From an uncultured Synergistales bacterium (lineage in GTDB: Bacteria; Synergistota; Synergistia; Synergistales; Aminobacteriaceae): 64,000 nucleotides of DNA. Below the pieces are notes generated by a model that was not told the origin of the DNA, did not search any database, and saw nothing but the letters and a program-made list of their open reading frames with translations. The position numbers were made by a program, and so were the translations under genes. Shown here piece by piece: positions 44,758 through 52,357 of this stretch (position 1 is the stretch's first letter; each line of letters opens with the position of its first letter). Where the stretch lies: positions 567-64,566 of the forward strand of contig CAJOLN010000001.1 of the NCBI GenBank assembly GCA_905235395.1, read 5' to 3'.

Positions 44758-44835
44758 CGGGACGTAGCGCAGTCTGGCGAGCGCGCATGGTTCGGGTCCA
44801 TGAGGCCGGAGGTTCAAATCCTCTCGTCCCGACCA
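44758..44835 (+). tRNA. tRNA-Pro (anticodon CGG), CCA encoded
   Basis: Folded by hand: acceptor CGGGACG/CGTCCCG, D stem GCGC/GCGC, anticodon stem CATGG/CCATG with loop TTCGGGT, T arm GGAGG-TTCAAAT-CCTCT, discriminator A, CCA. Confidence 0.9.
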
Positions 44836-45780: not shown

Positions 45781-45886
45781 TATAAAAAACACCTTCTTGT
45801 TAGATTTATTGTGTTTATTGTACAACACAATTCTTTTCAGAAGGTGATAAAAAGTTTTCTTATGTGTGTCTTAGAACAAAAAACAA

Positions 45887-45938
45887 AATCCTCCTGTGTA
45901 AATTTTTTTTTTGCTTAAAACTTTACACTCAGAGGATT
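45887..45938 (-). terminator. Strong hairpin terminator directly after the precursor-peptide gene
   Basis: Arms are 45887-45902 (AATCCTCCTGTGTAAA) and 45922-45938 (TTTACACTCAGAGGATT). The minus strand continues with TTGTTTTTTG. Confidence 0.6.
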
Positions 45939-45954
45939 CTATTCACAAATTAAT

Positions 45955-46146
45955 TTAGCAAAGTTCGGGGTGACATTGCTTCATGTGAACGTTAAGTTCT
46001 GACATTCTTGTGGACTCGAAAGCGCAACCTGCTACGGGGCACTTGGCCATAAGTCTTGATATATCAAAACCGCCGCTGATGCTGTACATCATTTCTTCCG
46101 TAAGCTCATTCTCCAATTGTACTTCTGATTTCTTTTTTCTTGGCAT
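45955..46146 (-). CDS. Double-glycine-leader precursor peptide (bacteriocin or signal-peptide-like) with a Cys/His-rich core
   Basis: MPRKKKSEVQLENELTEEMMYSISGG|FDISRLMAKCPVAGCAFESTRMSELNVHMKQCHPELC. The leader fits LSxxELxxIxGG. The gene lies divergent from an operon encoding a C39-peptidase ABC exporter. Confidence 0.6.
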   Translation of the reverse strand: MPRKKKSEVQLENELTEEMMYSISGGFDISRLMAKCPVAGCAFESTRMSELNVHMKQCHPELC

Positions 46147-46374
46147 GATATCTTCACATCCTTTCTCAACTTCTTATTTTTTTTTTGTAGATTCAAAACG
46201 TAATAAGTTTACAACAATTGTACATTCTTTTCAAATGTTTTTCTATTAAAAAACAAAATTCTCAGTTAAAATTTTTTATATATAAACAAAAATTCATTAT
46301 TAAATTGATATTTCGTTTCAGCAATTGTAAAATACATGCAATAGTTAAAACACAAGGGGGCTTGTAATACTTTG

Positions 46375-47166
46375 ATGAAATTTCTTGTAATTGAAAAAGA
46401 CAAAACCAGTCTTAAAAATTTAATCAGCACTGTCAAGGAAGCAGAACCAGAGGCAAAAGTTGTAGAGGCGCGTGATTTTGAAGAGGCATTGAAATTCAAA
46501 GATGAAGAATTTGATGTAGCTCTTATAGACGCGGATCAGAATTCAGCGGCAAATTTTGTTGAGGGACTCAAAGCTAAATTCAGAGACACGCATGTGATCT
46601 TTATGTCGAACTCTAAAGAACACATGGCTGATGCGTTTCACGTTCATGCAGATTCATATTTGCTCAAGCCAGTCCAACCTGAAGACATCAGCAGAGAAGT
46701 GGAATATCTGACGAATCATTATCCTGCACCTTTGAGACGCGTAAAAGTTGCAGTGAAGACATTCGGAGGATTCAATGTGTATGTCCGGGGCAGAAGGTTA
46801 TTATTCAAGAGGAGCAAGTCAAAGGAGCTTCTTGCGATACTGGTTGATCATCGCGGACTTGGACTTACAACAAGGCAAGTGTGTTCATTGTTATTTGAGG
46901 GCAGAGAATATAATGAGCTTCTGCTAGGCTATTATCATGTCGTACTGACATCATTGAAGTCTACGCTGAGTGAAGCTGGAGTGAGAGGAATAATTCAGAA
47001 ATCAATGAATTACATCGCAATCAACCCGGACATTATAGACTGCGATATGTACAAATACCTCAAAGGAGATCCTGAAGCACTGAAAAGCTATCACGGGGAT
47101 TATATGGCGGGCTACAAATGGTCGGAACGTTCACGCAGAAACGAGAAAAAGAGGAGTAAACGTTAA
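46375..47166 (+). CDS. Orphan response regulator: REC domain plus a SARP/BTAD-like winged-helix DNA-binding domain
   Basis: REC landmarks are FDVALIDAD (phospho-Asp), IFMS and YLLKP. These are followed by VKTFGGFNVYVRGRRLLFKRSKSKELLAILVDHRG. No histidine kinase lies nearby. Confidence 0.7.
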   Translation: MKFLVIEKDKTSLKNLISTVKEAEPEAKVVEARDFEEALKFKDEEFDVALIDADQNSAANFVEGLKAKFRDTHVIFMSNSKEHMADAFHVHADSYLLKPVQPEDISREVEYLTNHYPAPLRRVKVAVKTFGGFNVYVRGRRLLFKRSKSKELLAILVDHRGLGLTTRQVCSLLFEGREYNELLLGYYHVVLTSLKSTLSEAGVRGIIQKSMNYIAINPDIIDCDMYKYLKGDPEALKSYHGDYMAGYKWSERSRRNEKKRSKR

Positions 47167-47363
47167 TGCCATCGAATTTGGAGATGAGAATCCAATCACC
47201 AGAGCAATTGGATAACTATATACGGGTAACATCTTCTGGTGTATGGGTTATATTGTCAGCAATCATAATAGTGCTTGCAGGTTTTGTATTCTGGATATTC
47301 ACCGGAGAGATTGAAACACAGAATAAAGAAATCATACGGCCTATTTCGTTTTTTCTGAAGTGA
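47166..47363 (+). CDS. 65-aa membrane protein resembling only the N-terminal anchor of an NHLM-type HlyD secretion protein
   Basis: SPEQLDNYIRVTSSGVWVILSAIIIVLAGFVFWIFTGEIET matches the SPEQLD...TM...G-I-T start of bacteriocin-system HlyD adaptors. The ORF then stops 9 nt before the ABC gene. Its start overlaps the regulator's stop (TAATG). Confidence 0.5.
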   Translation: MPSNLEMRIQSPEQLDNYIRVTSSGVWVILSAIIIVLAGFVFWIFTGEIETQNKEIIRPISFFLK

Positions 47364-47372
47364 AGCAAAAAA

Positions 47373-49562
47373 ATGTTTACGCGCAGCAAAATAAAGCAAA
47401 CAGTTAAAGAAGGTGTTGTGAAAGTTCCTGTCGTGATACAACTGGAGGCACTCGAATGTGGAGCGGCAGCGTTGTGTATGATACTTGCGTATTTCGGAAA
47501 ATGGGTTCCTCTTGAGCAGTTAAGAAAAGAATGCGGAGTATCAAGAGACGGTTCAAATCTTTGGAATATATATCAGGTTAGCAGGAAGTATAAGCTGAGT
47601 ACGAGAGCGTTTCAGTGTTCAGCGAATCAATTGAGGGAAAAGGCAACATTTCCGTGTATAGTGTTCTGGAACTTCAATCACTTCATTGTTGTAGACGGTT
47701 TCAAAGGGAAGAATGTATATATCAATAACCCAAGCGGCGGAGAGATGACCATAACCTTTGAAGAGTTCAGCAGGTCGTATTCAGGGATATGCATGATGTT
47801 TGAACCCGAAGATGATTTTGAGACAGGAGGACAGCCTGAATCGATTCTGAAGTTTGCAGGAGAAAGACTGAAGGGTACAATGCCCGCGATAGTGCTTGTA
47901 ACGCTCACGGCATTGATTGCGTCAATAATAGGAATGATTACGCCAGCGTTTTCGAGATTCTTTGTTGATAATATTCTCACTGGAAAATATTCTGACTGGT
48001 CATTGCAATTTTTCCTTTTGCTTGGAGCATTAGCGTTATTTCAGATAATTTCGCTGTGCATAAAGTCTTTGTATCTGTTAAAGCTGCAAGGGAAGACGGC
48101 AATAATAGCAAGCACAAAATTTCTGTGGCATATGCTGAGGCTGCCTGTTGAATTTTTTGAGCAGAGAATGGCAGGAGACATAATACAACGTTATGCATCG
48201 AATCAAAAAATTGCAGACACTCTAATAAACACGTTAACGCCGTTAGTTCTTGATATTTTGAGTATGATTCTAAATCTTTGCATAATGATGAATTACAGTC
48301 CTCTTCTCGCGTGCATGGGAATAATCTCTGTGATACTGAGCATAATTGCGGCAGATTACATATCGAAGAAGCGAGTGAACATAACACGAGTTCAGATGAC
48401 AGAAATGGCCAATCTCGCAGGGACGACAATGCAGGGAATAAATATGATAGAGACGATAAAGTCAGCGGGAGCAGAACACGGATTTTTCATGAGATGGTCA
48501 GGATTTCAGGCGAATGCGAACATGCAGACGGTGAAATTTGCGAAGCTCAACAGCATTCTAGGACAAATTCCGCTGCTTCTCTCAATGCTTGCGTCATACA
48601 TCATATTGTTCTTGGGAGTGAGGCTTGTGATTCATGGAGAATGGACTATCGGACTTATCTCCGCATTCACTGGTTACCTTACAGCGTTTCAGACTCCGGC
48701 ACAGAATCTCGTACTTGCAAGTCAGCAGATTCAGGAGATGCGCACAAACATGGAACGAGTGCAGGATGTCTTCAAGTATCCTGTTGATGTGAATGTTGAA
48801 GACAGGACGCAGTCTCAAGATTTTGAAGAGGACATGAATAAATTATCAGGGCTTGTTGAAATGAAAAATGTAAAATTCGGATATAACAAGCTGGATGACC
48901 CTCTTATTGAGAATTTTTCACTGAGAGTTGAAGCAGGCAAAAGCGTTGCACTTGTTGGAGCGTCAGGGTGCGGAAAGTCAACAGTAGCGAAATTACTCAC
49001 TGGTTTATATCCTGCGTGGGAAGGCGAGATACTCTTTGACGGTAAGCCGATAAGCCAGATAAATCGAAGTATATTCACTGGATCAGTAGCATGTGTTGAC
49101 CAGAACATAACGCTCTTTGAAGACACGATAGCAAATAATATAAGGCTATGGGATAAATCAATTAAAAACTTCGAGGTCATTTTAGCGGCTCGTGATGCAC
49201 TGATTCATGATGAGATAATTCAGAGGGAAGGAGATTATTCATCAGAAGTCAAAGAAGAAGGAAGGAATTTTTCAGGAGGGCAGCGTCAGCGTATAGAGAT
49301 TGCGAGAGTGCTTGCGCAAGACCCAACGATAATAATTCTTGACGAGGCAACAAGCGCATTGGACTCGAAGACGGAATACGAGCTTATGAAGTTAATTGGG
49401 AACAGAGGAATAACCCGAATTATAATATCTCACAGACTTTCAATCATAAGGGACTGCGAAGAAATTATAGTGATGAAAGACGGAAAGATTTTAGACAGAG
49501 GGAACCACGGCGAATTAGTGCGGAAATGCGAATATTATTCTGAACTGATAACGAATGAATGA
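47373..49562 (+). CDS. Bacteriocin/peptide ABC exporter with an N-terminal C39 peptidase domain
   Basis: C39 motifs QLEALECGAAAL (Cys) and NHFIVVDG (His), six TM helices, Walker A GASGCGKST, signature FSGGQRQR and Walker B IIILDEATSALD. Confidence 0.85.
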   Translation: MFTRSKIKQTVKEGVVKVPVVIQLEALECGAAALCMILAYFGKWVPLEQLRKECGVSRDGSNLWNIYQVSRKYKLSTRAFQCSANQLREKATFPCIVFWNFNHFIVVDGFKGKNVYINNPSGGEMTITFEEFSRSYSGICMMFEPEDDFETGGQPESILKFAGERLKGTMPAIVLVTLTALIASIIGMITPAFSRFFVDNILTGKYSDWSLQFFLLLGALALFQIISLCIKSLYLLKLQGKTAIIASTKFLWHMLRLPVEFFEQRMAGDIIQRYASNQKIADTLINTLTPLVLDILSMILNLCIMMNYSPLLACMGIISVILSIIAADYISKKRVNITRVQMTEMANLAGTTMQGINMIETIKSAGAEHGFFMRWSGFQANANMQTVKFAKLNSILGQIPLLLSMLASYIILFLGVRLVIHGEWTIGLISAFTGYLTAFQTPAQNLVLASQQIQEMRTNMERVQDVFKYPVDVNVEDRTQSQDFEEDMNKLSGLVEMKNVKFGYNKLDDPLIENFSLRVEAGKSVALVGASGCGKSTVAKLLTGLYPAWEGEILFDGKPISQINRSIFTGSVACVDQNITLFEDTIANNIRLWDKSIKNFEVILAARDALIHDEIIQREGDYSSEVKEEGRNFSGGQRQRIEIARVLAQDPTIIILDEATSALDSKTEYELMKLIGNRGITRIIISHRLSIIRDCEEIIVMKDGKILDRGNHGELVRKCEYYSELITNE

Positions 49563-49577
49563 GGAGCACGAATAAAA

Positions 49578-51704
49578 ATGTCAGGCTGGTTTGAAGAACA
49601 GTTACACGAAAGAATACGTGCAGATGAAGAAACGTTCTCGAATGCGTTTTTAGAAATATCTGAAGTTTTGACGGGGAAGTCATTAACGGAAAGTACTAAG
49701 AATGCTCTTCAGGAGATTGCAAAGTTCTATAACGTTGAAGTTGCGCCAGATGATGTTCTGAAGTCAGGATTGCTTATGCATAGGACAGTCAGGCTCAGTG
49801 AAGGCTGGTACAAAGATGCATCGGGAGTTTATCTTGCGACGACGAAAAACGGAACATATGCGGCACTGATTCCGAAACGCAATGTATATTACTATCAGGA
49901 TTATGAATCAGGAAAGACGATACGAATAGACGCATTGACGCAGAAGAATCTGAATCCTGAAGCAGAATGTTTTTACAGGCCGTTTCCTGCAAGAAAGTTA
50001 TCGGTCAGGGATTTATTCATCCATGCATTGAAAAGTTTATCACCCTATGACCTCGTATATATTGCATCAATCACAATGGCTATGACTCTTGCCGCGATGA
50101 TACCGCCGTTCATGACACGTATAATATTTTCTCATGTGATATTTTCTAAAAACGTACAGCCGCTTTTAGCCATTATAGTGTTCATGATAAGTGCAGGGCT
50201 TGCAAGTATACTTTTTCAGGCTGTGAGGGATTTAGCACTATCGAGGATACAGGAAAAGACAAATGTGTCATTAATGGCAGCAGTAATGATGAGGCTGATA
50301 AACCTTCCGGTTGAGTTTTTCGGGAAATATTCATCGAGTGAACTTGCAAATGCGGCCTCAGCAATGAATATGCTGTGTAATTTTTCGATGAATGTTGTAT
50401 TTTCTGTGGGGCTTACTGCGTTTCTTAGCCTGATGTATGTGGTTGAGATATTTAGATTCTCGAATGCTATGGTTATTCCTGTACTCTGTATCATGATGAG
50501 CATGTTTGTATTCTCAATGACTGCCGCAAAAATTCAGGCAGGGATACTCAAGAGGGTATTGAAGATACAAGGCAAGGAGAGTGGAATACTATTTGCATTC
50601 ATAAACGGGATTCAGAAAATCAAATTAGCTGGAGCAGAACGAAGAGCCTTTGCGAAATGGGCATCATGTTACAAGGAAGATGCAAATCTGGCATATAACC
50701 CGCCGCTGTTTGTGAAGTTAATTCCAGTTTTTCAGCCTGCAATAACTTCAATTGGAATGCTTGTGATTTATATGAGTGCATATAATTCAGGAATAAGCAT
50801 TGATAATTACATGGCCTTCATAGCAGCTTACGGAATGATATCGGCTGCATTCAATGCGCTGTGTATGTCAGTTATGTCAATCGCCTCAATAACTCCGATT
50901 ATAGATTTGATTCGTCCAATACTGGAGGCAACCCCAGAGCATTTATCATGGGATATGTCTTTGAAGCTGAGAGGAGGTGTAGAAGTCAGCAATCTATCAT
51001 TCAGATACACATCAAAATCTCCGTTAGTGCTCGATCATATTTCGTTCAAGATAAGGCCCGGCGAATACATAGGAATAGTAGGCAAAAGCGGCTGCGGAAA
51101 GAGTACGCTGATGCGTTTGCTACTTGGATTTGAGAGAACATACAGCGGAGTTATATATTATGACGGTAATGACATAAGGCATCTGAATCTCAAAGCATTA
51201 CGGAGCAATATCGGATCAGTAATGCAGGAGAGCAAATTGTTTCCCGGAAGCATATACTCGAACATCACGATAACTGCACCGGAACTCACGGAACAAGAAG
51301 CATGGAGGGCAGCCGAGACAGCAGGAATAGCAGAAGATATTCGGAAGATGCCCATGATGATGAATACGATGATAAGTGAAGGGACAAGTACGCTCTCAGG
51401 AGGACAGGTTCAAAGGATAGTGATAGCACGGGCAGTAGCACCGAAGCCGAGAATATTATTGTTCGATGAAGCGACAAGTGCACTTGATAATATCACTCAG
51501 AAGTTAGTTGCAGATTCACTTGATCATCTGAAGTGCACAAGGATAGTAATAGCACATAGACTTTCAACGGTGAGGAACTGCGGAAGAATTTTGGTGATTG
51601 ACGGAGGGCACATAGTAGAAGAAGGAAGCTATGATGAACTCATGAAGCAAAACGGACTTTTTGTATCACTTGTTGAACGTCAGAGATTAGGACAGGAGTT
51701 TTAA
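49578..51704 (+). CDS. Second ABC exporter subunit with a non-peptidase N-terminal domain (NHLM ABC2-like)
   Basis: A 150-aa N-terminal domain without the Cys/His motifs, a TM domain, Walker A GKSGCGKST, signature LSGGQVQR and Walker B LLFDEATSALD. Confidence 0.8.
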   Translation: MSGWFEEQLHERIRADEETFSNAFLEISEVLTGKSLTESTKNALQEIAKFYNVEVAPDDVLKSGLLMHRTVRLSEGWYKDASGVYLATTKNGTYAALIPKRNVYYYQDYESGKTIRIDALTQKNLNPEAECFYRPFPARKLSVRDLFIHALKSLSPYDLVYIASITMAMTLAAMIPPFMTRIIFSHVIFSKNVQPLLAIIVFMISAGLASILFQAVRDLALSRIQEKTNVSLMAAVMMRLINLPVEFFGKYSSSELANAASAMNMLCNFSMNVVFSVGLTAFLSLMYVVEIFRFSNAMVIPVLCIMMSMFVFSMTAAKIQAGILKRVLKIQGKESGILFAFINGIQKIKLAGAERRAFAKWASCYKEDANLAYNPPLFVKLIPVFQPAITSIGMLVIYMSAYNSGISIDNYMAFIAAYGMISAAFNALCMSVMSIASITPIIDLIRPILEATPEHLSWDMSLKLRGGVEVSNLSFRYTSKSPLVLDHISFKIRPGEYIGIVGKSGCGKSTLMRLLLGFERTYSGVIYYDGNDIRHLNLKALRSNIGSVMQESKLFPGSIYSNITITAPELTEQEAWRAAETAGIAEDIRKMPMMMNTMISEGTSTLSGGQVQRIVIARAVAPKPRILLFDEATSALDNITQKLVADSLDHLKCTRIVIAHRLSTVRNCGRILVIDGGHIVEEGSYDELMKQNGLFVSLVERQRLGQEF

Positions 51705-51793
51705 ACTCGAAGAAATTTTTGCATTTCTAATGCAGATGTAAATGATAAGTGCTTTTGCAATATAATGCACATTCAAAGGAGGTAGATTTTGAT

Positions 51794-52357
51794 TTGAGTA
51801 TCAAAAAGTTTGTAGCAGAATTAACCCTCGTATGCATCATTTCACCGTTAATTGAAGTCAGAACATCAAGTGCAGCGAGACTCATGACTGATGAAGCATC
51901 CAGAATTGAACGTTTGAGTACAGTGCGTGAAAGAGAACGCCGTGAACAAGCTCGCTGGGAAGCCGAACGCAGACAGCGAGAGCGTAATGAACGTGAACGC
52001 AGGGAACGCGACCGCAGAGAACGCGAACGTCGTGAAGAAGAACGCCGCGCAGAAGAGCGTCGTGCTGCAGAGCGCCGAGCTGCAGAGCGTCGAGCAGAAG
52101 AACGCCGAGCAGCAGAACGTCGTGAAGCAGAGCGCCGCGAAAGAGAAAGACGCGATTGGGAAAGGGAACAGAGTTACAGAAGAGAACGTGAGCGCAGAGA
52201 ATGGGAACGTTACGAACGCGAACGCAGAGATTATGAGAGACGCGAGAAACAGCGCGAAGAAGATGAACTTGTTGCTGACATAATCGGAGAGCTTATCAAG
52301 GAAGGTCTCAAAGAAGAAGCCAGACAAGAAAGAGAAAGAGAAAGAAGACGCTATTAA
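51794..52357 (+). CDS. Anchored or secreted Arg/Glu-rich polyampholyte protein (unknown function)
   Basis: A TTG at 51794 lies 11 nt after AAGGAGG (the ORF track starts at GTG 51749). The N-terminus SIKKFVAELTLVCIISPLIEVRTSSAA is hydrophobic. About 110 residues follow that are almost entirely R/E/A, with ERRA[AE] pentapeptides. Confidence 0.55.
   Translation: MSIKKFVAELTLVCIISPLIEVRTSSAARLMTDEASRIERLSTVRERERREQARWEAERRQRERNERERRERDRRERERREEERRAEERRAAERRAAERRAEERRAAERREAERRERERRDWEREQSYRRERERREWERYERERRDYERREKQREEDELVADIIGELIKEGLKEEARQERERERRRY
51926..52264 (+). repeat. Purine-rich low-complexity coding tract (ER repeats, 15-nt periodic core at about 52037-52138)
   Basis: The units gagcgccgagctgca / gagcgtcgagcagaa / gaacgccgagcagca / gaacgtcgtgaagca encode ERRAA/ERRAE/ERRAA/ERREA with varied synonymous codons. 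At least three of the six frames are open here (two plus-strand frames and one minus-strand frame). Confidence 0.8.

Follow-up and report, generated by a model that had tools for sequence, protein, structure and literature searches.

Double-glycine leaders recognised by ATP-binding cassette (ABC) exporters with a C39 peptidase domain (C39-ABC exporters) have so far been associated with bacteriocins, peptides that are made by the ribosome and modified after translation (RiPPs), short pheromones and a small number of proteins. Classical C2H2 zinc fingers are, to our knowledge, regarded as an essentially eukaryotic, intracellular module. Here we describe a gene that joins these two elements. It is located in a 64,000-nt stretch of contig CAJOLN010000001.1 from an uncultured Synergistales bacterium (the window, meaning the whole of the DNA analysed) and encodes a 63-amino-acid (aa) peptide in which a double-glycine leader is followed by a core with the spacing of a C2H2 finger. 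We consider it probable, with moderate confidence, that the peptide is a single C2H2 zinc finger which is cleaved from its leader, exported, and acts after secretion as a signal or effector linked with the neighbouring response regulator. It is probably a previously undescribed kind of bacterial peptide, and probably one destined for export; a literature search returned no description of a zinc finger behind a double-glycine leader.

The export side of the locus is best compared with the peptidase-containing ABC transporter (PCAT) or ABC-transporter maturation and secretion (AMS) systems, such as LahT, ComA/ComC and PCAT1/CtA. Common to all are the GG at positions -2/-1, the hydrophobic residues at -4, -7 and -12 and the adjacent C39-ABC gene. 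In contrast to these systems, the cargo here has the pattern of a classical zinc finger rather than that of a membrane-active bacteriocin or a short linear pheromone, immunity gene and histidine kinase are both absent, and the exporter consists of two genes, ABC1 and ABC2, together with a vestigial adaptor. Selection of the cargo in PCATs operates via the leader alone (PMC6959990). The core shares its ligand spacing, a Leu three residues before the first His and its predicted fold with the C2H2 fingers of eukaryotes (PF00096; ZFAT, CTCF, ZFY, ZFP91). It differs from them as a single bacterial finger of about 37 aa, placed behind a secretion leader and scoring below the PF00096 cut-off, and it lacks the basic surface or flanks of DNA-binding fingers. 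The aromatic residue of its core stands two positions after the second Cys, an arrangement which we take to be the ‘aromatic-swap’ variant of ZFY- and CTCF-type fingers. The bacterial Ros/MucR proteins are cytoplasmic transcription factors with C-X2-C-X9-H-X3-4-H spacing in a larger globular DNA-binding domain, whereas the spacing of the peptide is X4/X12/X4 and Ros/MucR proteins have no leader; there was no ROS_MUCR match among the 25 Pfam family matches listed for the peptide family. Cys2His2-type zinc coordination is a feature of Ros/MucR (PMC9779718), as it would be here.

Translation of positions 45955–46146 on the minus strand gives MPRKKKSEVQLENELTEEMMYSISGG and then FDISRLMAKCPVAGCAFESTRMSELNVHMKQCHPELC, the predicted cleavage point lying between them, after G26. 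Residues counted back from G26 are I-4, M-7, E-9, E-10, T-11 and L-12. The core carries C36-X4-C41-X12-H54-X4-H59, with L51 three residues ahead of H54 and two further cysteines, C58 and C63. These residues are exactly those on which a preliminary description of this DNA, made from the letters alone, had based its claim of a double-glycine leader and a C2H2 core. The leader and C2H2 motifs in tandem occur only once in the six-frame translation of the window and in none of 100 shuffles; the sole other leader-like motif in the six frames sits within an 827-aa open reading frame (ORF). A long hairpin followed by a U-run is found directly 3′ of the stop codon (about 45881–45944; folding energy -23.6 kcal/mol, z = -4.6, equalled by 0 of 200 shuffles), which bears out the terminator proposed earlier. 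A simple terminator scan returned nothing at the peptide gene because the loop of this hairpin exceeds 8 nt. On the other side of the gene, promoter hexamer matches in the 225-nt divergent region were not above shuffle expectation, and the upstream regions of distant homologues did not align with each other. Repeats in the divergent region are AT-rich and of low complexity, and no regulatory site is claimed there.

The small size of the ORF and its weak promoter and ribosome-binding-site matches might suggest a chance reading frame rather than a gene. This explanation is, however, effectively refuted by the existence of about 45 sequence clusters, by a ratio of non-synonymous to synonymous substitution rates (dN/dS) near 0.1–0.2, by the terminator and by the conserved neighbourhood. 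The ORF is also annotated by gene callers on 5 independent metagenome contigs. The 63-aa ORF is a real, conserved gene.

A word-indexed protein search of 5.8 billion clusters with the single peptide retrieved the query itself alone. Exhaustive phmmer against 1.8 billion representatives returned five short relatives and many long eukaryote-type multi-finger proteins aligned to peptide residues 33–62, for example P0006 and P0012, which have HTGERPFKC linkers (protein and locus numbers, P and L, are our own). With a profile built from the short relatives, 45 proteins of 43–88 aa were collected; all named members are hypothetical proteins of Synergistaceae. A scan of metagenome DNA with the family profile gave only 4 extra loci, which come from a single assembly. 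The family is not covered by any Pfam or NCBIfam model. At its margins, a weak tblastn match in L031 (ACPVSSCGFRSTEGVERIAHVR) was rejected as a member, being inside a long ORF and reaching E = 0.07 with the family hidden Markov model. P0085, without leader and with E = 0.013, is a doubtful member, and P0084 (43 aa) is probably a truncated sequence. The long phmmer matches also include P0004, the nearest relative of the finger outside the family, which combines ankyrin repeats with seven C2H2 fingers of CxIxGCxY type. Its gene (L087, 1094–5825) lies on a 6-kb contig of JGI metagenome 3300028603, 73 nt from a gene for a 1003-aa Ank/C2H2 protein; this spacing is prokaryote- or virus-like.

The 45-sequence alignment has no invariant columns besides the four putative ligands C36, C41, H54 and H59; G25, G26, P37, V38, F43, E44 and N52 recur in 90% or more of the members. 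The cleavage motif GG (rarely AG) is present in 43 of the 45. Among these 43 leader-bearing members, CX4C and HX4H are each found in 41, and 7 to 17 residues separate GG from the finger. Of the two extra cysteines pointed out in the preliminary description, both exist in the window peptide, and neither C58 nor C63 is conserved among homologues. Cores of the family hold 3–5 Cys, and a fourth Cys (C45) and a C-terminal Cys are conserved in many members. Selection on the gene is purifying, with dN/dS of 0.115 (window versus L007) and 0.166 (L007 versus L082); these values are limited to the L007/L082 orthologue pairs, since synonymous sites were saturated in other pairs. The ORF DNA of the same-species contigs L001–L004 is identical and thus uninformative on selection, so that L005, L007 and L082 were used instead. 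The leader and finger halves are conserved as a unit across some 43 homologues.

Leaders of the family are 16–35 aa long. Their conservation is periodic: L/M is found at position -12 in 31 of 43, L/M at -7 in 36, V/I/Y at -4 in 34, and G at -1 in all 43, and thus the homologues retain the leader assigned from the window peptide. The double-glycine protease LahT150 of a rumen Lachnospiraceae has been characterised: its substrates must be hydrophobic at -4, -7 and -12 and may be altered at -3, -5 and -8 (PMC6363468). The window peptide has I-4, M-7 and L-12 at the three required positions. A leader helix at residues 17–23 is predicted by AlphaFold2 with the family alignment, and in a search of the family profile against PDB sequences the leader is matched by the precursor of carnobacteriocin B2 (E = 0.011). 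Curated leader models, the check suggested in the preliminary description, were matched below their cut-offs. Sub-threshold matches were obtained with TIGR03949 (bact_IIb_cerein; 12 of 45 members, best E 0.0015), TIGR01847 (bacteriocin_sig; 7 of 45, best E 0.023) and PF10439 (Bacteriocin_IIc; 11 of 45, best E 0.018), and the window peptide itself was matched by none of the three at E <= 1.

The core was compared with known fingers by sequence and by predicted structure. Among the 45 members, Pfam assigned Zn_SUZ12 to 33 and zf-C2H2 (PF00096) to 28; the best PF00096 E-value is 6e-4, and members with bit scores listed reach about 14–15 bits against a cut-off of 25.2. The sole C2H2 Pfam match of the window peptide is zf-C2H2_12 (15.6 bits versus a cut-off of 27.3). 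When the family profile was run against PDB sequences, the core was matched by human C2H2 fingers, among them those of ZFAT (E = 1.4e-4), ZFP91, ZNF64 and CTCF. The AlphaFold2 model of the core has strands at 34–35 and 44–45 and a helix at 48–58, with a predicted local distance difference test (pLDDT) score of 81–86; this is the beta-beta-alpha arrangement of a finger, as the preliminary description would lead one to expect. The positions of the finger's hydrophobic core are conserved, F43 as above and L/M at 51. With Foldseek, the best 50 PDB matches were almost all C2H2 fingers, and single fingers superposed with a root-mean-square deviation of 0.6–1.5 Å over 22–28 residues; the E-values are non-significant, as expected for a domain of about 28 residues. 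That the core product would be a zinc-bound beta-beta-alpha domain is argued for by the invariance of the four ligands, by the conservation of the hydrophobic core and by the fold prediction.

Could the peptide instead be a class II bacteriocin of the usual unmodified sort, whose stability comes from disulfide bonds rather than from metal? The double-glycine leader, the C39 exporter, the 3–5 cysteines of the cores and the weak matches of members to class IIb and class IIc bacteriocin families can all be read in this sense. However, these family matches cover the leader and not the core. Of the cysteines all but two vary, and the pair of His is just as invariant as these two. The core has a near-neutral, hydrophilic composition (net charge from -4 to +3 among members) and contains neither an amphipathic nor a hydrophobic segment. 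No immunity-like gene follows the peptide gene; the terminator comes next and then a gene for a solute-binding protein. Disulfide bonds are, in addition, disfavoured in the surroundings of anaerobes, and the hosts are probably gut or rumen anaerobes, their habitat being taken from the names of metagenome-assembled genomes and strict anaerobiosis being assumed. We therefore give the disulfide-stabilised bacteriocin only a small chance of being correct.

The exporter belongs to a four-gene operon that is divergent from the peptide gene and begins 225 nt away. ABC1 starts (position 47373) 1227 nt from the start codon of the peptide, on the opposite strand, in agreement with the distance of 1.2 kb given in the preliminary description. 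Its C39 domain is closely related to LahT150 (PDB 6MPZ; E = 2e-55). The catalytic triad of LahT150 is Cys27/His101/Asp117, and ABC1 has Q23, C29 and H103 of its active site intact. A cognate exporter of the right kind is thus genetically linked to the peptide. It is of the family that serves the NHLP/Nif11-leader systems, whose three-gene export set is represented here by ABC1 above its cut-off, ABC2 below it and the HlyD-type adaptor as a 65-aa N-terminal piece. The coordinates are collected in Table 1.

Table 1. Features of the peptide locus and of the divergent operon in the window, followed by the maturase/precursor pairs of other loci (own coordinates of each locus).
Feature	Position	Strand	Basis
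Precursor gene, 63 aa + stop codon	45955..46146	-	Double-glycine leader, then C2H2 zinc-finger core
Leader, residues 1-26, MPRKKKSEVQLENELTEEMMYSISGG, predicted cleavage after G26	46069..46146	-	Direct sequence reading and family profile
Predicted mature 37-aa core (FDISRLMAK...HPELC)	45958..46068	-	Sequence and family alignment
Putative C2H2 zinc finger, C36-X4-C41-X12-H54-X4-H59	45970..46041	-	Invariant columns, predicted fold, profile matches
Intrinsic terminator, long hairpin then U-run	45870..45944	-	Folding versus shuffles
Candidate sigma-70-like promoter hexamers, weak	46206..46245	-	Two overlapping 9/12 matches
Response regulator, receiver domain + C-terminal part without Pfam match	46372..47166	+	Pfam Response_reg, E = 4.3e-8
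65-aa membrane protein, N-terminal transmembrane part of NHLP-system HlyD adaptor	47166..47363	+	TIGR03794 positions 1-44 of 421, E = 1e-6
ABC1, C39 peptidase + ABC membrane + ABC ATPase domains (NHLP family)	47373..49562	+	TIGR03796, 859.6 bits versus cut-off 853.3; Peptidase_C39, E = 3e-33
ABC2, ABC permease/ATPase without peptidase domain, TIGR03797-like	49578..51704	+	666.4 bits, below cut-off 709.4
Radical-SAM/Nif11 pairs of other loci	L073 7678-9443; L077 6962-8847; L083 1803-3652; L006 7926-9681; L045 7931-9719

We infer the following pathway, in which cleavage, export, zinc binding, destination (periplasm or outside the cell) and biological role are all conditional. The amphipathic leader helix would dock L-12, M-7 and I-4 in the hydrophobic groove that the ABC1 peptidase domain offers, and this domain would cut the precursor after G26. 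ABC1 and ABC2 would then move the 37-residue core across the inner membrane. Structural work on PCAT1 places specificity in the leader and describes a transmembrane cavity of about 15,000 cubic angstroms that takes a 66-residue cargo (PMC6959990), and a finger of 37 residues would therefore fit. Once exported, the core would bind Zn2+ via C36, C41, H54 and H59. Since the host is probably a strict anaerobe, its surroundings are probably reducing; free thiolates could persist outside the cytoplasm of such hosts, and the core could keep its finger fold there.

The neighbourhood of the peptide gene was compared in 15 distinct loci, window included. A pair of C39-ABC and ABC2 genes is found within a few kb in 10 of them (window, L005, L007, L073, L075, L077, L080, L082, L083 and L084), so that core homologues do co-occur with C39 exporters in other Synergistota, a check put forward in the preliminary description. 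In L080 the exporter shares an operon with the peptide; the order on the one strand is peptide, response regulator, short HlyD, ABC1, ABC2. Besides the exporter, three types of gene recur near the peptide: a gene for a DUF7005 protein, pairs of a radical S-adenosylmethionine (radical-SAM) maturase and its precursor, and a response regulator-like gene.

DUF7005 is encoded directly upstream of the peptide in 8 of the 15 loci; in L077 the two genes share 8 nt. The protein has invariant H154, E155, D174 and E175 and a near-invariant H158, which form an HExxH...E motif. Its AlphaFold model, a confident one (pLDDT 92), gave only weak matches to gluzincin peptidases (M1 and M9 zinc peptidases); we found no PDB sequence match, no NCBIfam match, no significant structural neighbour in the PDB and, in a literature search, no description. 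Radical-SAM/SPASM maturase genes lie in the exporter operon in 4 of the 15 loci, each with its own Nif11-type precursor. The same pair occurs in L006 and L045, which are both without zinc-finger peptide. The cores of these precursors are Cys/Gly-rich (for example GGGLCVCDGSGTGNATHGFCFCADSG), and the pair looks like an uncharacterised RiPP system of Synergistaceae.

These neighbours raise the question of whether the peptide is itself a RiPP precursor, its conserved Cys and His being modified by the radical-SAM/SPASM maturase or by the DUF7005 HExxH protein instead of serving as zinc ligands. The positions of the two enzyme genes and the conservation in many members of the fourth and the C-terminal Cys would suit such a precursor. 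Yet the window encodes neither enzyme, though its peptide is intact and under selection. Every radical-SAM gene adjoins a Nif11-type precursor of its own, Cys/Gly-rich in the core; the structures closest to DUF7005, though only weakly similar, are zinc peptidases and not known RiPP maturases; and the conserved features include F43, L/M51 and the precise spacing that a folded finger has, for which a modification motif would have no need. We judge a modified RiPP to be quite improbable. Consistently with the preliminary description, which had seen no modifying enzyme in the locus, the 64-kb window has no radical-SAM enzyme, no Nif11-type precursor and no DUF7005 gene, and the zinc-finger peptide is therefore the only candidate substrate near the exporter.

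The relation of the peptide to Nif11-type precursors is nevertheless of interest for export. The locus is like the NHLP/Nif11-leader system in the family of its exporter and in its sister loci, which encode Nif11-type precursors and radical-SAM maturases. Unlike NHLP/Nif11 precursors, the peptide has no Nif11 or NHLP homology domain: neither TIGR03798 nor TIGR03793 matched the window peptide or any of the 45 members, while a Nif11-type precursor of L073, used as control, matched TIGR03798 at 8.6e-12. The absence of a modifying enzyme from the window and the shortened HlyD are further differences. In sister loci, ...SEDEMKAVAGG closes the Nif11-type leaders, and ...LSEDMLGDFTGG and ...LSEDFLESVAGG close those of zinc-finger peptides encoded at the same loci, the last 12 or so leader residues being alike. 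On the basis of these common leader ends, one exporter could therefore serve both kinds of peptide.

The most constant neighbour, ahead of the exporter, is the response regulator-like gene, which adjoins the peptide in 14 of the 15 loci. In L079, L081, L085 and L086 it immediately precedes the peptide gene on the same strand, and the available flank shows no exporter. The regulator of the window keeps the phospho-acceptor Asp53 and the conserved Lys, and its acidic Asp pair near residue 10 reads E-K-D (D-H in L005 and L007). With no histidine kinase nearby, these residues suggest an atypical regulator, perhaps one that would not depend on phosphorylation.

Such a constant partner is also what one would expect if the peptide were a small cytoplasmic zinc-finger co-regulator or anti-activator of the adjacent response regulator, with a leader-like N-terminus that is unused or serves for removal by export (compare FlgM). 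A receiver domain that appears to lack the usual acidic Asp pair, no histidine kinase nearby and the general habit of C2H2 fingers to bind nucleic acid or protein inside cells would agree with this role, as would the four loci with a regulator and no exporter in the flank. Against it, the leader bears the signature of C39 recognition, with -12, -7, -4 and GG conserved and the intervening residues variable, a pattern that an unused tail would not need, and in 10 of 15 loci the peptide is linked to the exporter. A single, near-neutral finger is moreover unlikely to bind DNA alone, and the basic PRKKK N-terminus of the window peptide is lost in distant members of the family. A cytoplasmic regulator is in our view unlikely.

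An exported finger acting as signal or effector finds its nearest parallel in the induction peptides ComC, BlpC and PlnA. As with these, a double-glycine peptide gene stands beside a response regulator, and the C39-ABC exporter is common with a separate antimicrobial system, here the radical-SAM/Nif11 pair of the sister loci. In contrast to these, there is no histidine kinase, and the core is longer, predicted to be folded and strongly conserved, not short and pherotype-diversifying. By analogy with induction peptides that share bacteriocin exporters, a signal or effector appears more likely than a membrane-active bacteriocin, because the core is hydrophilic and near-neutral, no immunity gene is present, the response regulator-like partner is constant and the sister loci have a separate radical-SAM RiPP. 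This RiPP could be the antimicrobial.

Several results weigh against an exported and signalling zinc finger. In ABC1, Asn119 (47727–47729) replaces the catalytic Asp; it is found in all five same-species contigs, and Asp in 66 other loci. The natural third residue of the papain triad is, for comparison, an Asn, and activity of the C39 domain despite Asn119 is therefore plausible. The HlyD-type adaptor is cut to 65 aa, compared with 421 positions of the model. Because the HlyD-like orthologues of other Synergistaceae are also short (65–156 aa), this looks like a feature of the clade and not a fresh pseudogene; with an adaptor so reduced, it is left unexplained how the peptide would pass a diderm's outer membrane. 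No match to a curated leader model or to PF00096 reaches its gathering cut-off, and zinc fingers are typically intracellular. Five of the 15 loci, two of them on short contigs, have no exporter in the available flank. Finally, no HisKA or HATPase_c gene is found beside the module at any locus examined, and the signalling circuit is therefore incomplete; the sole kinase seen, about 6 kb away in L081, is paired with its own OmpR-type regulator.

If the peptide is indeed an exported finger, the cargo range of C39-ABC exporters would extend to a metal-stabilised mini-domain, and bacteria would offer a rare example of a classical finger. The question of zinc-dependent folding outside the cytoplasm of anaerobes would also be raised. 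A wider proposal, which we put forward tentatively and which may well prove wrong, is that gut and rumen Synergistaceae possess a family of leader-cleaved, exported single C2H2 fingers, possibly of eukaryote-type origin, keeping their fold beyond the cytoplasm thanks to probably anoxic surroundings, acting as signal or effector for a kinase-less response regulator and representing the first extracellular or periplasmic use of such fingers in bacteria. The family in any case gives a handle on this regulator, on DUF7005 and on the short HlyD-like protein.

Some further features were noted around the peptide genes. Two tandem zinc-finger peptide genes with identical leader ends and cores (L079, 10001–10183 and 10225–10455) stand behind a response regulator-like gene; the contig is from Synergistaceae, and its flank shows no exporter. 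Genes for DUF7005 (PF22541) were located in L007 (7888–8679), L005 (1237–2034) and also in L071, L075, L077, L082, L083, L084 and L045, and close relatives of the protein are found in Lachnospiraceae and Butyrivibrio as well.

A protein rich in Glu/Arg repeats (ERRERERRE...) is encoded 3′ of ABC2 in the window (51749–52357, plus strand), in L005 (7667–8242) and in L007 (14759–15247), with a signal-peptide-like N-terminus in the latter two. On the same-species contigs the publicly annotated gene (118 aa) uses another frame, corresponding to window positions 51927–52283; it is the Glu/Arg frame that is conserved between species. On the other side of the peptide locus lies a tRNA-Pro(CGG) gene (window 44758–44835), the only match of an Rfam scan of the whole window. 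Between it and the peptide gene are the gene for a solute-binding protein in the window, two other genes in L007 and none in L005. Gene content thus differs by species, and this interval is a variable spot.

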